Shown piece by piece: positions 2,393 to 43,975 of a DNA stretch of 64,000 nt. The stretch lies in assembly GCF_003991155.1 (NCBI RefSeq), contig NZ_CP031293.1. The stretch is one strand, 5' to 3'. Both the position numbers and the translations under genes were made by a program. Numbering within the stretch: the first letter of the stretch is position 1; every line of letters starts with the position of its first letter. The DNA comes from Escherichia coli (lineage in GTDB: Bacteria; Pseudomonadota; Gammaproteobacteria; Enterobacterales; Enterobacteriaceae). Below the pieces are notes generated by a model. The model saw nothing but the letters and a program-made list of their open reading frames with translations, made no database searches and was not told where the DNA came from.

Positions 2393-3475
2393 GTGAAACC
2401 AGTAACGCTATACGATGTCGCAGAGTATGCCGGTGTCTCTTATCAGACCGTTTCCCGCGTGGTGAACCAGGCCAGCCACGTTTCTGCGAAAACGCGGGAA
2501 AAAGTGGAAGCGGCGATGGCGGAGCTGAATTACATTCCCAACCGCGTGGCACAACAACTGGCAGGCAAACAGTCGTTGCTGATTGGCGTTGCCACCTCCA
2601 GTCTGGCCCTGCACGCGCCGTCGCAAATTGTCGCGGCGATTAAATCTCGCGCCGATCAACTGGGTGCCAGCGTGGTGGTGTCGATGGTAGAACGAAGCGG
2701 CGTCGAAGCCTGTAAAGCGGCGGTGCACAATCTTCTCGCGCAACGCGTCAGTGGGCTGATCATTAACTATCCGCTGGATGACCAGGATGCCATTGCTGTG
2801 GAAGCTGCCTGCGCTAATGTTCCGGCGTTATTTCTTGATGTCTCTGACCAGACACCCATCAACAGTATTATTTTCTCCCATGAAGACGGTACGCGACTGG
2901 GCGTGGAGCATCTGGTCGCATTGGGTCACCAGCAAATCGCGCTGTTAGCAGGTCCATTAAGTTCTGTCTCGGCGCGTCTGCGTCTGGCGGGCTGGCATAA
3001 ATATCTCACACGCAATCAAATTCAGCCGATAGCGGAACGGGAAGGCGACTGGAGTGCCATGTCCGGTTTTCAACAAACCATGCAAATGCTGAATGAGGGC
3101 ATCGTCCCCACTGCGATGCTGGTTGCCAACGATCAGATGGCGCTGGGCGCAATGCGCGCCATTACCGAGTCCGGGCTGCGCGTTGGTGCGGATATCTCGG
3201 TAGTGGGATACGACGATACCGAAGACAGCTCGTGTTATATCCCGCCGTTAACCACCATCAAACAGGATTTTCGCCTGCTGGGGCAAACCAGCGTGGACCG
3301 CTTGCTGCAACTCTCTCAGGGCCAGGCGGTGAAGAGCAATCAGCTGTTGCCCGTCTCACTGGTGAAAAGAAAAACCACCCTTCCGCCCAATACGCAAACC
3401 GCTTCTCCCCAGGCGTTGGCAGATTCTTTAATGCAGCTGGCGCGACAAATTTCCCGACTGGAAAGCGGGCAGTGA
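2393..3475 (+). CDS. lacI: lactose operon repressor LacI
   Basis: GTG start at 2393 gives (M)KPVTLYDVAEYAGVSYQTVSRVVN (LacI HTH) and 360 aa; C-terminus ...ARQISRLESGQ. A few substitutions versus the K-12 sequence as I recall it. Confidence 0.97.
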   Translation: MKPVTLYDVAEYAGVSYQTVSRVVNQASHVSAKTREKVEAAMAELNYIPNRVAQQLAGKQSLLIGVATSSLALHAPSQIVAAIKSRADQLGASVVVSMVERSGVEACKAAVHNLLAQRVSGLIINYPLDDQDAIAVEAACANVPALFLDVSDQTPINSIIFSHEDGTRLGVEHLVALGHQQIALLAGPLSSVSARLRLAGWHKYLTRNQIQPIAEREGDWSAMSGFQQTMQMLNEGIVPTAMLVANDQMALGAMRAITESGLRVGADISVVGYDDTEDSSCYIPPLTTIKQDFRLLGQTSVDRLLQLSQGQAVKSNQLLPVSLVKRKTTLPPNTQTASPQALADSLMQLARQISRLESGQ

Positions 3476-12126: not shown

Positions 12127-12208
12127 TGCCTGATGCGCTACGCTTATCAGGCCTACGAGTTCAGTGCTCTACGTAGGCCGGATAAGGCGTTCACGCCGCA
12201 TCCGGCAT
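12127..12208. repeat. REP element cluster between cynR and codA (convergent)
   Basis: GCCTGATGCGCTACGCTTATCAGGCCTAC ... GTAGGCCGGATAAGGCGTTCACGCCGCATCCGGCA. Confidence 0.7.
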
Positions 12209-14954: not shown

Positions 14955-15008
14955 CGTCGCATCAGGCATCGGCGCATGGTGTCGGATGCGCCAGGCGACG
15001 CATCCGAC
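14955..15008. repeat. REP element between codB and prpE
   Basis: CGTCGCATCAGGCATCGGCGCATGGTGTCGGATGCGCCAGGCGACGCATCCGACA. Confidence 0.65.
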
Positions 15009-15014
15009 AATAAC

Positions 15015-26820: not shown

Positions 26821-28203
26821 TCAACCTGCCACACTCCCCCACACCAGTTGCCCTTTATGGAACGTTGCGGTTCTCGGCGAGATACGCGCCACCGCCTCGG
26901 CGGAACAGGAGGCGTCCACCAGCACAAAGCTGGCGTCATCCTGCGCTTTGGGCCACACGCGCTCGCCTTTTTCGTTGAGCGGCAATACATCGCCAGTGGC
27001 TAAAAACAGCGAACGGGACAAATTCTGTTCGTTAGGACGAATATAGAGCTGCGCGTAGAGATTGGCTTTTTCCAGCATGTCGCCCAGGCCGTAGGGAGAC
27101 CAGTGGTCGATAACGCTGTCGGTGCCGGTCATGACTTGTACGCCTTTGTCGTGCAACTGTTTGAGCGGCATATGCAGCGTGCCAATCGGCACCGTCGAGG
27201 CGATAGAAATTTGCTGCGCCGCCATCCGGTGCGCCAGTTCATCTACCTGTTGCTCATTGAGCGTTGCCAACGCAAAGGCGTGACTGATGGTCAGCTTGCC
27301 CTTCAGCTGTGGCGTTTTCTCTACCGTTTCAACCATATAATTGATGGCTGCCACGCCCGACGGAGTGGTTTCGTGCAGGTGAATATCGACGCCTTTGTCG
27401 TAGTCCAGCGCAATCTGGAACATGGTGTCGAGGGATTTTTCCATCGCGCCATCGACACTGGTCGGGTCCAGTCCGCCGACGTAATGCGCACCCGCCTGCA
27501 TCGCTTCGCGCATTAAGGGTTCTGATTTCGACAGCAGCAAACCGTGCTGCGGGAAGGCGACAATTTCACACTCGAAGCCCGCCTGACGTCGCGCCAGAAC
27601 CGCCTGCAAATTTTGCAGATTTTTCAGGCCGGAAACCGGTTCGATATTGCAGTGGCTGCGGGCAATGGTGGTGCCTTTCGACTGCAATAAATCGATCAGT
27701 TTTTCCGCCCGCTCCTGCGTGTACGGTTGTAACTCCGGCAGCATTTTCTGCTCGAGTTTGATCATGTCCTGGATGGTGGTGCCTGCCGGGCGATTGAGCG
27801 AGCGCCACGGCCCGCCGTAGAAAGTTTTGTCGAGATGAATATGCATGTCGCGGGTGGTGGGCAGCATCAACTTACCGCCTGCGTCATAGTGCGGCAGCGT
27901 GGCCTCCGGATGCTGCTTGTTCTCGCGCAGGGCAACAATTTTGCCGTTCTGAATCTCTACGGTCTGGTGCGCCGTGCGGGTCTGCACCGCCACACCGTTT
28001 TCGTAGTCAAAACCGGTTTCCAGCAGCACGTTGTCGAGATAGTAGTGCGGGTCAGTGATTTTCATGGTGTTATTTGCCTCGCAGTGGGTTGTGCCAGAGA
28101 CTGCCGCATGGGCGAGCGGCACTGAGGTACCAAACAGCGCGGCGGCGGTAACCATCTTACCGCTCTGGCTCAGAAATTCACGGCGGCTATTGTTTTCTTT
28201 CAT
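26821..28203 (-). CDS. yahJ: amidohydrolase-family deaminase with twin-arginine (Tat) signal peptide
   Basis: 460 aa; N-terminus MKENNSRREFLSQSGKMVTAAALFGTSVPLAHA has an SRRxFL Tat motif; metal-dependent hydrolase fold (HIHLD). Confidence 0.85.
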   Translation of the reverse strand: MKENNSRREFLSQSGKMVTAAALFGTSVPLAHAAVSGTTHCEANNTMKITDPHYYLDNVLLETGFDYENGVAVQTRTAHQTVEIQNGKIVALRENKQHPEATLPHYDAGGKLMLPTTRDMHIHLDKTFYGGPWRSLNRPAGTTIQDMIKLEQKMLPELQPYTQERAEKLIDLLQSKGTTIARSHCNIEPVSGLKNLQNLQAVLARRQAGFECEIVAFPQHGLLLSKSEPLMREAMQAGAHYVGGLDPTSVDGAMEKSLDTMFQIALDYDKGVDIHLHETTPSGVAAINYMVETVEKTPQLKGKLTISHAFALATLNEQQVDELAHRMAAQQISIASTVPIGTLHMPLKQLHDKGVQVMTGTDSVIDHWSPYGLGDMLEKANLYAQLYIRPNEQNLSRSLFLATGDVLPLNEKGERVWPKAQDDASFVLVDASCSAEAVARISPRTATFHKGQLVWGSVAG

Positions 28204-28212
28204 CTTACGTCC

Positions 28213-29163
28213 TTAGGTTTTAATAATATGGGTGCCCGTTTCGCCGCGTAGCGCCGCAGGCAGGCATTCCGGCGTGGTGATAATCACTTTTTTACCGCCC
28301 TGCTCCAGGAACGTCAGGCTGGCGATGATTTTTGGCAACATGCTGCCGGGTGGGAAATGCCCTTCCTGCATATAGCGGGTCATGGTGGCAATATCCACCC
28401 GATCCAGCACCTGCTGCTGCGGTTTGCCAAAGTGAATACACACTTTTTCGACGCCAGTGGTGATCACCAGAATGTCGGCGTGAATTTCACGGGCCAATAG
28501 CGCGGTAGAGAGATCTTTGTCGATAACCGCGTCCACGCTTTGATAATCTCCCGCTTCGGTGCGCACCACAGGAATTCCACCGCCGCCCGCGCCAATCACC
28601 ACAAAGCCTTGTTGGATCAGCGCCTTAATGGCAGGTGCTTCGACAATACGTTTCGGTTCCGGCGAGGCGACCACGCGGCGATAGCCCCGTCCGGCATCTT
28701 CAACAAAACGCCAGTCAGGGTTTGCCTTTTGTAGTTCGTCACGCTGGCTTTCACTAAAGAATGCGCCGATGGGCTTGGTGGGATGGGCAAACCCCGGATC
28801 GTTTTTATCCACTTCCACCTGAGTCACCACGGTGACGGCTTTTTTCTCGCCGTGACGCGCCAGCCGGTTATTCAGCGCCTGCTGGATCAGATAGCCAATG
28901 CCGCCTTGCGTATCCGCCACACAGTTCGCCAGCGGCGTTAAGGGCAGCCCTTCGCGCTCGTGGGCAATCTCCGCGCGGCGTAAATCCAAACCGACCTGCG
29001 GTCCGTTGCCGTGGGTCAGCACAATGTCGTAATCGGAAGCCAGCATTTCCAGCACCGTATCGGCGACGGCCTTCACCGCCTCCGCCTGATGCTCAATCGA
29101 CTGGCTGGCGTTATCTTTGATAATGCTGTTGCCACCAATGGCAACGACCACAAGTTCTTTCAT
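28213..29163 (-). CDS. yahI: carbamate kinase-like protein
   Basis: ORF 28213..29280; ATG at 29163 gives MKELVVVAIGGNSII (amino-acid kinase fold, 316 aa). Confidence 0.82.
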   Translation of the reverse strand: MKELVVVAIGGNSIIKDNASQSIEHQAEAVKAVADTVLEMLASDYDIVLTHGNGPQVGLDLRRAEIAHEREGLPLTPLANCVADTQGGIGYLIQQALNNRLARHGEKKAVTVVTQVEVDKNDPGFAHPTKPIGAFFSESQRDELQKANPDWRFVEDAGRGYRRVVASPEPKRIVEAPAIKALIQQGFVVIGAGGGGIPVVRTEAGDYQSVDAVIDKDLSTALLAREIHADILVITTGVEKVCIHFGKPQQQVLDRVDIATMTRYMQEGHFPPGSMLPKIIASLTFLEQGGKKVIITTPECLPAALRGETGTHIIKT

Positions 29164-29258
29164 GTTGTTATGTCCGCTACAGAGGGTGATGGGGTTATGA
29201 GAGTGAGGTTGCCCTTCTCCCCAAAAGGGAGAAGGTATCGTAAGGTGCGGTTGGAGGG

Positions 29259-30677
29259 TCAGACGCCGTAACGTTCGCACCAGCCAAGAATGGCTTTCTC
29301 GAAGCAGGCGAAGGGTGGATGCACAATGCCCGCGCCAATCATGCCGACGCCCGCATCTTTATGGGCAATGGCGGTGTTGATCACCGGCAGAATGCCGCTG
29401 CTACCCACGCGGGTGATGTCGATTGCCGACGGCACGCCCATAAAACCGAGCAGCGGAATGGTCACGTTGGGGTTTTCGCCGAGAGTGATTTCGCGCATCT
29501 GACGGGAGAAATCGATAGCCTCTTCCACCGTACCGCCCACCAGCGCGACGATTGCAGGCGCGGTCGCCATAGCAAATCCGCCAATGCCGTAGGTTTCGGT
29601 GATGGCGCTGTCGCCGATATCCAGCCCCGAATCTTCCGGCTTATAACCGGCAAACATCGGGCCGATCACCTGCTGCGCCGGACCGGTAAACCATTGCCCC
29701 GGTAATCCGCTGACCCGCAGACCGAACTCGACGCCGTTACGCGCCATGGTGGTCACCACAGTGCTGTATTCGATGCCGTGCGCCGCATCCATCGCCGCTT
29801 TACACATCGCCATCCACGTCGGGCCGGAGAAGTAGTCACTGCTGGCGACAAACTCAAACACTTCGCGCTGTTGCTCGACGGAGTAGCCCGCCTGAATAAT
29901 CCCCGGCGTCAGCGCCTGAATCAGCAGCGTCGTCCCGGCGTTATTGCGGTTATGGCACTCATCGCCCATATGCAGCGCCTGCGCCAGCATTAAGCGCAGA
30001 TCGATTTCGCCGATAATTTTCATCGCGTCGCGCAGCATGGGTCCCTGCACATCGCGCATCCAGTTGAGGCGGTCGATCACGCTCTGGTCATTAGCGCCCA
30101 TACGCAAAATCTTCGCCATCTGCTCGCTCATGTTGGTATAAGCGATGTTGCCGTAGGTTTTGTTTTTCACGATGTGCATAAACATCGAGGCCGAGGTGAC
30201 GCCCGCCATCGATCCCACACAGTCGTGCTCGTGGCACGGCGAGAAAGTGATCTCACCGGAAGCCGCCAGTTCAGCCGCCTCGTCGAGATCTTTCGCCAGC
30301 CCTTCGAACACCAGCGCCCCGGTGACCGCGCCTTTCATCGCGCCGCACATTTTTTCCCAGGTGACCGGCGGCCCGGCGTGAAGAATGGTTTTCGGCGTCA
30401 TGCCCGGCACCACGTTAATCGCCTGATCAAAACCAATCAGCACCGGATGTGACTGAATAATGCGTTCCAGCGCCTGCTGGTTAGCGGCGGCGATTTTGTC
30501 TGCCAGCGGCGAATCGGCAATGTTGTCCAGCGCCTGCACCACCTGCATATTGCCCTGCCCCGGCGGCGTCCAGTCGAGTTGAGTCACTTCTACATGCTGC
30601 TTTTTCAAATCATCGCTAAACATGGCGATGCCGACGTTAATAACGTTCAACGGTTGGCTAAACAGTGACGGGCTCAT
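29259..30677 (-). CDS. yahG: DUF1116 protein (YlbE paralogue)
   Basis: 472-aa ORF; start ATG shares one nucleotide with the yahF stop (TGATG), indicating translational coupling. Confidence 0.8.
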   Translation of the reverse strand: MSPSLFSQPLNVINVGIAMFSDDLKKQHVEVTQLDWTPPGQGNMQVVQALDNIADSPLADKIAAANQQALERIIQSHPVLIGFDQAINVVPGMTPKTILHAGPPVTWEKMCGAMKGAVTGALVFEGLAKDLDEAAELAASGEITFSPCHEHDCVGSMAGVTSASMFMHIVKNKTYGNIAYTNMSEQMAKILRMGANDQSVIDRLNWMRDVQGPMLRDAMKIIGEIDLRLMLAQALHMGDECHNRNNAGTTLLIQALTPGIIQAGYSVEQQREVFEFVASSDYFSGPTWMAMCKAAMDAAHGIEYSTVVTTMARNGVEFGLRVSGLPGQWFTGPAQQVIGPMFAGYKPEDSGLDIGDSAITETYGIGGFAMATAPAIVALVGGTVEEAIDFSRQMREITLGENPNVTIPLLGFMGVPSAIDITRVGSSGILPVINTAIAHKDAGVGMIGAGIVHPPFACFEKAILGWCERYGV

Positions 30678-32224
30678 CAGGCTTCCTCCCCTTTGCAGAT
30701 AAATTCACGCGCCAGCAATCCGGTATTGGTGCTGCTGCTCGCCAGAATCACTCCGGCATCAAGCAGCATCTGGCTTTGTTGTTCTAATGATGGCGTATCA
30801 AGATCGGTACCCAGCACATAGGCGAGAATGATCAACTCGCGTCCTTCGGCAGCGGCGATCGCTTTCGCCTCTTTGATCGCCTCGATGGTGGAACCGACCG
30901 GATCTTCATGCGATCCAAACCCGAGCACAAAATCCATCACGATCACCGCCACTTCTGGATCGCGCGCTTCTTCGATCAACCGGCTGATGCGGTTGGTCGG
31001 GTCAATCATTGGATGCGGCTTGCCGTTGGTAAAATCGTCATCGCCAAAGTCGAGGAAGGTATGTTTGACGCAGCGGTTGATATCTTTCAGGCGGAATTCA
31101 GGATCGGGCTGGATGTTGCTGTAGACATCGCCGTGTTTTTCCATCACCGCGAACATGGTTTCGTCACACAGCGTACCGCCGCAGAACAGGCCACGAATGT
31201 ATTTCTGTTGTGGCTTCAGGCGAGCGCGCACGTCAGCAATCAATGGCTGGTTCAGGGTATGCAGATCGAGATGTTCCTGTTTCACGCCGGAGAGCATTAC
31301 CGCTTTCAGCGCCGCTTCTTTGCTGCCGCGAGCAAACTGTAGCCCCTGCTCATCCACTGGCGTTTCGCCACGACCGAGGAAGCAGACCACCACCGGCTTG
31401 CGGCAGGCACGTGCGCGTTCCAGCACTTTGCGGGCCACCGCAGGCGCAGGCGGTTTGGAGATAAGCACAATGATTTCAGTTTGCGGATCGTTTTCCAGCA
31501 TCCCGATGGCATCGAGCATCATCAGACCGCCGATTTTCTCGCTCAGGTCGCGCCCGCCGGTGCCAATCAGTTGCGAAACGCCGCCGCAAAATTCATGGAT
31601 ACGGACGCTCAGTTCCTGGCTGCCGGTGCCAGATGCGCCAACAATGCCGATGTTGCCGCGACGCACGGCGTTACCAAAGCAGAGCGCCGCGCCGTTGATA
31701 ATCGCCGTACCGCAGTCTGGCCCCATCATCAGCAGCCCTTTTTCGTGGGCCAACTGTTTGAGCGCCAGTTCATCTTCAACTGAGACGTTATCGGAAAACA
31801 GCATCACGTTAAGATCGTTTTGCAGCGCCTGACGCGCTTCGCGAGCGGCAAACAGACCGTTGACCGAAATCACCGCCAGGTTACTTTCCGGGATATGCTT
31901 TTTGGCGCTGGCAATAGTGGCATAGCGTGCTTCATGTGAACCAGTTTGAGCTTTGGTGTTGAACAGTTCTTCAATCTCCACCAGCAACTGCTCGTTGTCT
32001 GCGCCCGCTTTGCCGTTGATGACAATCATCAGGTCGCCGTTTTTCGCCTGCTCCAGTTCCGGCGTCAGCAGCCCTAAATTCTTCAGCACGCCTTTGTTCA
32101 TTTCGGTCGCCATCGCCACAAATGCCTGCTCGACGCCGTCGAGTTTATTTGCACGCGTGGAGATAGACATCAGCGAGACAGAATCAAAATAGGTATTCGG
32201 TTTAATGACTATTTTAACTGACAT
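30677..32224 (-). CDS. yahF: FdrA-like acyl-CoA synthetase (NDP-forming) / succinyl-CoA-ligase-alpha-like protein
   Basis: 515 aa; CoA-binding glycine-rich segments (GIVGASGTG, ISKPPAP); overlaps yahE by 11 nt. Confidence 0.85.
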   Translation of the reverse strand: MSVKIVIKPNTYFDSVSLMSISTRANKLDGVEQAFVAMATEMNKGVLKNLGLLTPELEQAKNGDLMIVINGKAGADNEQLLVEIEELFNTKAQTGSHEARYATIASAKKHIPESNLAVISVNGLFAAREARQALQNDLNVMLFSDNVSVEDELALKQLAHEKGLLMMGPDCGTAIINGAALCFGNAVRRGNIGIVGASGTGSQELSVRIHEFCGGVSQLIGTGGRDLSEKIGGLMMLDAIGMLENDPQTEIIVLISKPPAPAVARKVLERARACRKPVVVCFLGRGETPVDEQGLQFARGSKEAALKAVMLSGVKQEHLDLHTLNQPLIADVRARLKPQQKYIRGLFCGGTLCDETMFAVMEKHGDVYSNIQPDPEFRLKDINRCVKHTFLDFGDDDFTNGKPHPMIDPTNRISRLIEEARDPEVAVIVMDFVLGFGSHEDPVGSTIEAIKEAKAIAAAEGRELIILAYVLGTDLDTPSLEQQSQMLLDAGVILASSSTNTGLLAREFICKGEEA

Positions 32225-41755: not shown

Positions 41756-43444
41756 TTGCAATTTGACTACATCATTATTGGTGCCGGCTCAGCCGGCAAC
41801 GTTCTCGCTACCCGTCTGACTGAAGATCCGAACACAACCGTGCTGCTGCTTGAAGCAGGCGGCCCGGACTATCGCTTTGACTTCCGCACCCAGATGCCCG
41901 CTGCGCTGGCATTCCCGCTACAGGGTAAACGCTACAACTGGGCCTATGAAACGGAACCGGAACCGTTTATGAACAACCGTCGCATGGAGTGCGGACGCGG
42001 TAAGGGGCTTGGCGGGTCATCACTGATCAACGGCATGTGTTACATCCGTGGTAACGCGCTGGATCTCGATAACTGGGCGCAAGAACCCGGTCTGGAGAAC
42101 TGGAGCTACCTCGACTGTCTGCCCTACTATCGCAAGGCCGAGACTCGCGATGTGGGCGAGAACGATTACCACGGTGGCGATGGCCCGGTGAGCGTCACCA
42201 CCTCCAAACCCGGCGTCAATCCGCTGTTTGAAGCGATGATTGAAGCGGGCGTGCAGGCGGGCTACCCACGCACGGACGATCTCAACGGCTATCAGCAGGA
42301 AGGTTTTGGCCCGATGGATCGCACCGTCACGCCGCATGGCCGTCGCGCCAGCACCGCGCGTGGCTATCTCGCTCAGGCCAAATCGCGCCCTAACCTGACT
42401 ATTCGTACTCACGCCATGACCGATCACATCATTTTTGACAGCAAACGCGCGGTGGGCGTCGAGTGGCTGGAAGGCGACAGCACCATTCCGACCCGCGCGG
42501 CGGCGAATAAAGAAGTGCTGTTATGTGCAGGCGCGATTGCTTCACCGCAGATCCTGCAACGCTCCGGCGTCGGCAACGCTGAACTGCTGGCGGAGTTTGA
42601 TATTCCGCTGGTGCATGAATTACCTGGCGTCGGCGAAAATCTTCAGGATCACCTGGAGATGTATCTGCAATATGAGTGCAAAGAACCGGTTTCCCTCTAC
42701 CCTGCCCTGCAGTGGTGGAATCAGCCGAAAATCGGTGCGGAGTGGCTGTTTGGCGGCACCGGCGTTGGTGCCAGCAACCACTTTGAAGCAGGCGGATTTA
42801 TTCGCAGCCGTGAGGAATTTGCGTGGCCGAATATTCAGTACCATTTCCTGCCAGTGGCGATTAACTATAACGGCTCGAACGCAGTGAAAGAGCACGGCTT
42901 CCAGTGCCACGTCGGATCGATGCGCTCGCCAAGCCGTGGGCATGTGCGGATTAAATCCCGCGACCCGCACCAGCATCCAGCGATTCTGTTTAACTACATG
43001 TCGCACGAGCAGGACTGGCAGGAGTTCCGCGACGCAATTCGCATCACCCGGGAGATCATGCATCAACCGGCGCTGGATCAGTATCGTGGCCGCGAAATCA
43101 GCCCCGGTGTCGAATGCCAGACGGATGAGCAGCTCGATGAGTTTGTGCGTAATCACGCCGAAACCGCCTTCCACCCATGCGGTACGTGCAAAATGGGGTA
43201 CGACGAGATGTCCGTTGTGGATGGCGAAGGCCGCGTGCACGGGCTGGAAGGATTACGCGTAGTCGATGCGTCAATTATGCCGCAGATTATCACCGGCAAT
43301 CTGAACGCCACGACGATTATGATTGGCGAGAAAATGGCGGATATGATTCGCGGGAAGGATGCGTTGCCGAGGAGCACGGCGGGATATTATGTGGCAAATG
43401 GGATGCCGGTGAGAGCGAAAAAAATGAGTCGTGATGTGAACTGA
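41756..43444 (+). CDS. betA: choline dehydrogenase (GMC oxidoreductase)
   Basis: ORF 41711..43444 overlaps betB; likely start is TTG 41756, 5 nt after the RBS AGGAGG, giving (M)[17 protein letters not shown] (FAD-binding). Exact start is uncertain. Confidence 0.93.
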
Positions 43445-43975
43445 CTCAGGAACCTATCAGATTGAGAGTTACCGTTCTACTATGAGGACCGAATCCTTAT
43501 ATAAAACACTGAGGTAACTCTCATGCTTCATATCCAGTATTCATGATGCTGGCTTTTTGCTGATATTTAACCCGAACATTCCTGATACAGACTATTAATT
43601 CATTTATCTGCGGCAGATTTTATTTTCTGGATATATTATGAGTGAACAAATCAAACAGGATATCGATCTGATTGAGATTTTATTTTATCTGAAGAAAAAG
43701 GTAGATGAATACCAACAAAACTCTGGGCAGTAATAAACAGCATTCTGATAGAGAGTGCCTGTATAAAGCTGAAGTGACAATGACCGGGAAGGGAACCCGT
43801 TTTCAGGAATGGATGCCTGTCTTTTTCAATTTAAATATCCTGGCATTAGTAATGCCAGGATATTTACAGAAGAGCAGCATAACCATGACGGAACGGGGTT
43901 AAGTCAGGTTGTCCTAAACGCTATTTTCAACCTCGTATGCCTTCTTCAGGTTTATGTCCAGACTTCATATCTCTC

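Follow-up and report, generated by a model that had tools for sequence, protein, structure and literature searches.

A stem-loop without a U-tract between yahG and yahI of Escherichia coli: a minority allele at a site of palindromic-element turnover and its plausible role in mRNA stability or attenuation

What is the role of a short, stable hairpin between two genes of one operon when no terminator-like U-tract follows it? The question is raised by the gap between yahG and yahI, which are located on the minus strand of the 64,000-nt stretch of E. coli DNA analysed here (the window). Both genes belong to the proposed operon yahDEFGIJ, inside which REP23/'yahH' has also been placed (Neuhaus et al., PMC4765031). 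The upstream cistron, yahG (29259..30677, minus strand), encodes a DUF1116/YlbE-family protein of 472 aa according to the RefSeq annotation of matching loci, and ends with TGA at 29261-29259. The downstream cistron, yahI (28213..29163, minus strand), encodes a carbamate kinase family protein of 316 aa and begins at the RefSeq start, ATG 29163-29161. The gap of 95 bp claimed in the initial annotation was reproduced by these positions, and the RefSeq boundaries of identical and near-identical loci agreed with it. The yahE/F and yahF/G pairs overlap and yahI and yahJ are 9 nt apart, yahG-yahI being the sole sizeable gap from yahE to yahJ. The yahI frame stays open through the gap and the hairpin up to GTG 29280 inside yahG, resulting in a mechanical ORF of 355 aa (28213-29280); this extension was obtained only because the gap contains no in-frame stop. 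An internal yahI promoter was ruled out since no sigma-70-like site was detected on the minus strand of the gap; promoter-like sites of the region were fewer than in shuffles. The Rfam cmscan of 27000-32000 at E values up to 10 gave nothing relevant in this region, and one spurious lncRNA match was located elsewhere.

The + strand sequence at 29213-29235 was determined to be CCTTCTCCC-CAAAA-GGGAGAAGG, which is the perfect 9-bp inverted repeat with a 5-nt loop described in the initial annotation. In the sense RNA of the minus strand, the stem-loop (29213..29235) reads CCUUCUCCC-UUUUG-GGGAGAAGG with nine Watson-Crick pairs and a closing U·G; its 5' arm consists of pyrimidines and its 3' arm of purines only. 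The stem contains six G-C pairs and is 9-10 bp long in the window (9-11 bp across the forms described below). The claimed stability was borne out by folding: the sense RNA CCUUCUCCCUUUUGGGGAGAAGG gave 10 pairs, the last being U·G, a 3-nt loop and -16.0 kcal/mol, with a z value of -3.2 and none of the 200 shuffles as stable. The computed energy of the + strand version was -15.1 kcal/mol. The stem begins 23 nt past the yahG stop and ends 49 nt short of the yahI ATG. The window contains 10 perfect hairpins of at least 9 bp compared with 1.9 +/- 1.6 in dinucleotide shuffles. The yahG-yahI hairpin is thus more than chance, yet one of several such structures in the window. A second copy of its pattern was not found in the window with up to three mismatches allowed (0 expected). 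Together with the single place per E. coli genome reported below, this result excluded a dispersed repeat.

The stem has the dimensions of an intrinsic terminator (GC-rich, 5-20 bp, loop of 3-8 nt) and, like a terminator, stands past a stop codon. In contrast to terminators, it has neither an upstream A-tract nor a U-tract. The sequence after the stem on the transcribed strand is GCAACCUCACUC, in which a run of at least five U in 8 nt, starting 0-2 nt past the stem, is absent, and the terminator scan made no call at the hairpin. Both the absence of the U-tract and the view that the element is not a canonical terminator, as proposed in the initial annotation, therefore held, and a canonical intrinsic terminator was ruled out. 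A leaky Rho-independent terminator that releases a fraction of the polymerases at the stem would fit the strong GC-rich stem of 9-11 bp, and a U-rich run does follow the hairpin in the corresponding position of Citrobacter (see below). However, the 8 nt past the stem are GCAACCUC, the consensus scan was silent, and a U-tract was not found after the stem in any of the seven E. coli haplotypes sampled. Due to the missing U-tract, leaky intrinsic termination was considered highly improbable.

For the distribution of the site, a 295-nt query spanning the gap was compared with 5,426 complete E. coli genomes and had matches in 5,048 of them. Many of these matches consisted of two pieces, with about 20% of the query missing and 45 to about 420 extra bases between the pieces. 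Five such loci were read, and the missing 59 nt (29200-29258, hairpin included) were found to be replaced by 1, 2, 4 or 5 BIME units, each unit being a REP pair with the GCCGGATGCGGCGTGAACGCCTTATCCGGCCTAC consensus. The allele-specific 59-nt segment (29200..29258, minus strand) comprises the spacer, the hairpin and GCAACCUCACUCU; most E. coli have in its place 1-5 BIME units, which bring flanks of their own. The spacer from the yahG stop to the hairpin (29236..29258, minus strand; 23 nt, CCCUCCAACCGCACCUUACGAUA) was compared with the BIME alleles: its first ~12 nt are homologous to their left flank and the remainder is allele-specific. The K-12 BIME begins 13 nt past the yahG stop, compared with 23 nt for the window hairpin.

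The hairpin-allele segment itself was detected with a 67-nt query in 654 of the 5,426 genomes (about 12%), at one place in each (median 1, maximum 2 with plasmids included); the search was performed with blastn at word size 11 and E values up to 10, settings that limit the detection of 20-nt matches in 28 Gb. The identities to the query fell into a 100% class with 131 records at >=99%, a class at about 95% with 32 records including IAI39, a class at 90-95% with 492 records, and three records at 85%. The hairpin is carried by a minority of E. coli genomes, at a site where palindromic elements turn over.

In K-12-like and O157 strains the BIMEs of the gap are annotated as the ORF yahH. In the BIME alleles this ORF arises from the repeats themselves; yahH is regarded as a doubtful ORF, and ribosome footprints on it have been reported in O157 (PMC4765031). 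In four BIME-carrying loci (L014, L002, L004, L001) an imperfect direct repeat of ~10 bp (CGTTGTTCAT … CGTTGGTCAT) stands on either side of the BIME cluster and resembles a target duplication.

Seven haplotypes of the hairpin allele in E. coli were aligned. The hairpin of the commonest haplotype is CCCUUCUCCC-UUCU-GGGGAGAGGGG with -19.5 kcal/mol. Its third pair is U·G and not U-A as in the window, and its stem is longer by an outer C-G pair that the window variant has lost. In strain 746, an additional C-to-U change converts a C-G into another U·G, and the computed folding energies were -16.6 kcal/mol for the sense and -8.7 kcal/mol for the antisense strand. The stem was paired in all seven haplotypes, and over 11 pairs 97.4% of the cells were standard pairs. 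One-sided variation was found at two pairs and a double-sided change at none. Formal covariation in the stem was not detected in the test, in which three substitutions touch the stem; with seven sequences the shuffle controls carry no information. With the wobble changes the sense RNA remains paired, and C·A mismatches arise on the other strand. The three substitutions are weak evidence that the transcribed strand is the relevant one.

Is the hairpin a member of a known repeat family? The BoxC/PIT/TMECO consensus is CCCTCNCCC-N3-6-GGGNGAGGG-N3-GGGNGAGGG (Holder et al. 2015, PMC4666352). BoxC elements are intergenic hairpins with one homopyrimidine and one homopurine arm, and the E. coli hairpin has the same arrangement. 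Moreover, the purine block of BoxC is the arm GGGGAGAGGGG of the commonest E. coli variant, and the TTCT loop is like BoxC loops. The fit ends at the first block: BoxC CCCTCNCCC corresponds to CCCTTCTCCC in the commoner variant, which is off by one T, or to CCTTCTCCC in the window, so that block 1 carries an extra or changed T; the respective second blocks are GGGGAGAGGGG, which fits, and GGGAGAAGG. The third BoxC block, GGGNGAGGG, stands 3 nt past block 2, whereas GCAA-CCTCACTCT is found there in E. coli. BoxC is also present in 23 near-identical copies in K-12, and the hairpin, at the sensitivity of the BLAST search, at a single place per genome in 654 genomes. No match was obtained for the full BoxC consensus in the window or for the pattern of blocks 1 and 2 in the E. 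coli loci with the hairpin allele (L006-L011). Among the 91 fetched loci, the BoxC hairpin pattern was located only in the orthologous yahG-yahI gap, where intact elements occur in three Kluyvera species and Klebsiella spallanzanii. Canonical membership was rejected as the consensus match and the third block are lacking and the element is single-copy. The possibility that CCTCACTCT is an inverted third block was also rejected: the same flank stands beside BIMEs in E. whittamii, which indicates an ancestral spacer and not a BoxC block. Judged by its sequence, the hairpin is BoxC-like without being a BoxC member, and possibly it is a BoxC remnant. That it arose when an inverted BoxC pair of the Kluyvera/Klebsiella type lost the sequence between its two direct GGGAGAGGG blocks is speculative; such an origin is compatible with the MAFFT alignment, which rests on short matches.

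No similarity to the REP consensus GCCGGATGCGGCG..CGCCTTATCCGGCCTAC was found in the hairpin. REP and BIME elements (REP23/'yahH' in K-12 and O157, REP325 in yjdMN, the malE-malF REP) are palindromic and orientation-independent like the hairpin, and REP23/'yahH' of K-12 and O157 occupies the same genomic slot. In contrast, BIMEs are paired REPs with a linker, and the hairpin is one short, single-copy stem. The only match to the REP consensus in the window is one canonical REP on the minus strand at 12173-12206, which is a perfect match; an 11-bp REP-like palindrome (TGTCGGATGCG…CGCATCCGACA) is located at 14980-15009. As REPs do occur elsewhere in the window, the lack of one between yahG and yahI is a feature of that slot in particular.

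At the level of DNA, the hairpin could form a cruciform or H-DNA, bind a protein in the way that REPs bind gyrase, IHF and Pol I, or mark the point at which REPs and BIMEs are acquired. The homopyrimidine and homopurine arms are shared with BoxC, in which an intrastrand triplex forms in vitro (PMC4666352); BIMEs stand in the place of the hairpin in other strains, and E. whittamii has kept the right flank beside its BIMEs. However, CCTCACTCT is found where the triplex needs GGGNGAGGG, and without this third block the published BoxC triplex cannot form here. In addition, the commonest variants have C·A mismatches in the + strand DNA hairpin and remain paired in the sense RNA. Even for true BoxC, no triplex footprint was found in vivo (Holder et al., PMC4666352). 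The missing third block and the mismatched DNA arms of the commonest variants make a role at the DNA level improbable.

To compare the same gap in other species, one genome per species with YahG was scanned. In 18 of the 80 resulting loci yahI directly follows yahG, and in all 18 a palindromic element stands directly past the yahG stop. These elements belong to unrelated families. E. albertii, E. whittamii and Pseudocitrobacter have BIMEs of the E. coli type, and a different REP (GTAGCCCGGGC...) was found in Kluyvera sichuanensis, K. ascorbata and a Klebsiella MAG. A single BoxC element is present in Kluyvera genomosp. 1 and an inverted BoxC pair in K. intermedia, K. cryocrescens and Klebsiella spallanzanii. 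Citrobacter amalonaticus and a Citrobacter MAG carry a CCCCGGC hairpin, which in the MAG is followed by a U-rich run (UUUCUUUCUC), and other GC hairpins were detected in Raoultella and Enterobacter sp. 10-1. The folding of the gaps compared with shuffles resulted in z values from -1.0 to -7.8 (17 of the 18 gaps; L029 was left out).

In E. whittamii the right flank of the hairpin allele, AACCTTACTCTCATAACC, is kept next to the BIMEs. This indicates that the flank is ancestral in Escherichia and that hairpin and BIMEs replace each other at the same point. The 3' part of the E. whittamii gap (L013) contains CATAACC twice (CATAACCTTACTCTCATAACC). By sequence comparison, the K-12-type alleles look like the result of a deletion between CATAACC repeats that removed AACCTYACTCT, which is retained in the hairpin allele. 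In E. albertii NBRC 107761 (L014, about 2920-3235), the BIME and the last ~60 nt of yahG (…GAGAAAGCCATTCTTGGCTGGTGCGAGCGTTACGGCGTTTGA…) are duplicated in tandem in the gap, a sign of local instability at the slot.

The hairpin could also be viewed as a neutral relic, i.e. a decayed selfish palindrome of the BoxC or another type at a hot spot of insertion and rearrangement, with no selected role and an incidental effect on the mRNA. The high polymorphism of the site in E. coli (hairpin or 1-5 BIMEs), the duplication in E. albertii, the similarity of the stem to BoxC arms and the intact BoxC elements in the orthologous gap of the three Kluyvera species and Klebsiella spallanzanii are all in line with this explanation. 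BoxC/TMECO loci have moreover been linked with raised rearrangement, and no function was found for them (Holder et al., PMC4666352). The relic explanation does not account equally well for the stem, whose pairing is complete even between haplotypes with up to 15% difference over the surrounding 67 nt and whose changes are wobble-compatible on the sense strand only. Likewise, the slot was filled in each of the 18 other species, although a much shorter gap would be possible. A neutral relic is a serious alternative, though well short of probable. The constant occupancy of the slot could itself result from the insertion preference of selfish palindromes and not from selection for a stem-loop.

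The slot is limited on its downstream side by a conserved sequence. The tail from the hairpin to the yahI ATG (29164..29212, minus strand, 49 nt) is C-rich and G-poor with 20 C and 5 G, which corresponds to the 99.94th percentile of C-minus-G on the minus strand of the window. By its composition, the tail is a candidate Rho-loading region or a candidate region of single-stranded cleavage. Its part from 29199 down (CAUAACCCCAUCACCCUCUGUAGCGGACAUAACAAC) is a conserved leader: some 35 nt before yahI (29164-29199, minus strand) are shared by Escherichia, Kluyvera, Citrobacter, Klebsiella and Raoultella (…ATAAYCNCATCACCYTCTGYANYGGA…). As the element varies and the ~35-nt yahI leader is conserved, the element is confined to a slot with the stop codon on one side and the leader on the other, and this slot of palindromic turnover is conserved across Enterobacteriaceae. 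The leader also contains a possible mini-hairpin of 4-5 bp (UCUG-NNN-YGGA) over the only SD-like GGA. Conservation of this kind could reflect a translational operator, a site for an sRNA or a protein, or a part of a rut site.

A more general interpretation is that enterobacteria need a strong stem-loop at yahG-yahI which separates yahDEFG from yahIJ, and that unrelated elements (plain GC hairpins, BoxC, several REP/BIME types, the BoxC-like remnant) would be interchangeable there and supersede each other over time, the swaps between strains (one hairpin or 1-5 BIMEs) tuning the YahG:YahI ratio. This interpretation is tentative and we regard it as doubtful. If true, the locus would offer a clear example from nature of selfish palindromic repeats taken into service at a fixed position for regulation.

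The stem might alternatively act on translation, either at yahI, where it would influence initiation, or at the yahG stop, where it would modulate how ribosomes terminate or are released. Liang, Rudd and Deutscher (2015) reportedly observed that a REP lowers the expression of the upstream gene when it stands no more than about 15 nt from the stop codon; the K-12 BIME with its distance of 13 nt lies within this range, and upstream of yahI only the weak SD-like GGA is present. The hairpin of the window, in contrast, is separated from the stop codon by 23 nt and from the ATG by 49 nt, and its predicted folds neither contact a terminating ribosome nor pair with the initiation region. Due to these distances, a translational effect was regarded as very unlikely.

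The role suggested in the initial annotation, that of an mRNA stability element or a partial attenuator, is the most plausible one for the hairpin. The steady-state 3' ends of Rho-dependent E. coli transcripts are located right after stable stem-loops that lack a U-tract (Dar and Sorek 2018, PMC6061677). Such stems guard against PNPase and RNase II, and the sequence downstream of them contains more C than G (PMC6061677). The yahG-yahI hairpin has these properties in common with the Dar and Sorek stem-loops: a stable stem of terminator-like size and energy, no U-tract, and an excess of C over G downstream (20 C and 5 G in 49 nt). The Dar and Sorek stem-loops were identified through mapped RNA 3' ends and sensitivity to PNPase and RNase II (PMC6061677); the hairpin is assigned to their functional class by its anatomy. 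Unlike them, the hairpin also stands between two cistrons of one operon, 49 nt from the next start. RNA 3'-end data for the yahG-yahI locus were not found in the literature on yahG, yahI, yahH and Term-seq. A second point of comparison is REP325, an in-operon REP that combines partly Rho-dependent attenuation with stabilisation of the upstream mRNA; REP positions were also found to vary between strains (Harris et al., bioRxiv 10.64898/2026.03.23.713779). A similar dual role, as a stabiliser of the upstream mRNA and a partial Rho-dependent attenuator, would be expected of the hairpin too.

According to the proposed mechanism, the hairpin would fold in the yahDEFGIJ transcript with -16 to -19.5 kcal/mol and without a U-tract. 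A stable stem of this kind would not act as an intrinsic terminator, as the U-tract is missing. Transcripts could be cleaved, or terminated by Rho, in the C-rich, G-poor and poorly translated stretch downstream of the stem, and those cut or terminated would then be trimmed back to the stem, at which the 3'-to-5' exonucleases PNPase and RNase II would be blocked. The outcome would be a stabilised yahD-G message and an output of yahIJ below that of yahDEFG. We infer from this scheme RNA 3' ends at the stem, protection from exonucleases, an involvement of Rho and an effect on the YahG:YahI ratio. The proposal that the hairpin is the occupant of the slot and acts as an exonuclease barrier which stabilises the yahD-G message and keeps yahIJ below yahDEFG, without being an intrinsic terminator, was given an even chance of being correct.

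Several points speak against the protective model. The covariation is weak, with three stem substitutions in seven haplotypes and none of them double-sided. The window variant lacks the outer C-G pair of the commoner form, and the possible insertion preference of selfish palindromes for the slot is a further point. The untranslated tail of 49 nt is short for the loading of Rho unless yahI is poorly translated. Furthermore, BoxC/PIT elements had no terminator or promoter activity in earlier tests (cited in PMC4666352).

Taken alone, the hairpin is an ordinary representative of a known type of element. Should the stem-loop act as outlined above, natural E. coli strains would differ in the output of yahDEFG relative to yahIJ in an uncharacterised carbamate-kinase/deaminase operon, and this difference would be set only by the element in the gap, i.e. 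the hairpin or 1-5 BIMEs. The locus would then provide a ready-made allelic series for studying how REP-like and non-REP stem-loops set gene ratios inside operons. It would also help to tell selection for structure from selfish spread at occupied sites.

The longest perfect palindrome in the window is located at 43832-43866. It is an AT-rich inverted repeat of 16 bp with a 3-nt loop, TAAATATCCTGGCATT-AGT-AATGCCAGGATATTTA, in an intergenic region of ~530 bp between the ORFs ending at 43444 (+ strand) and 43976 (minus strand).
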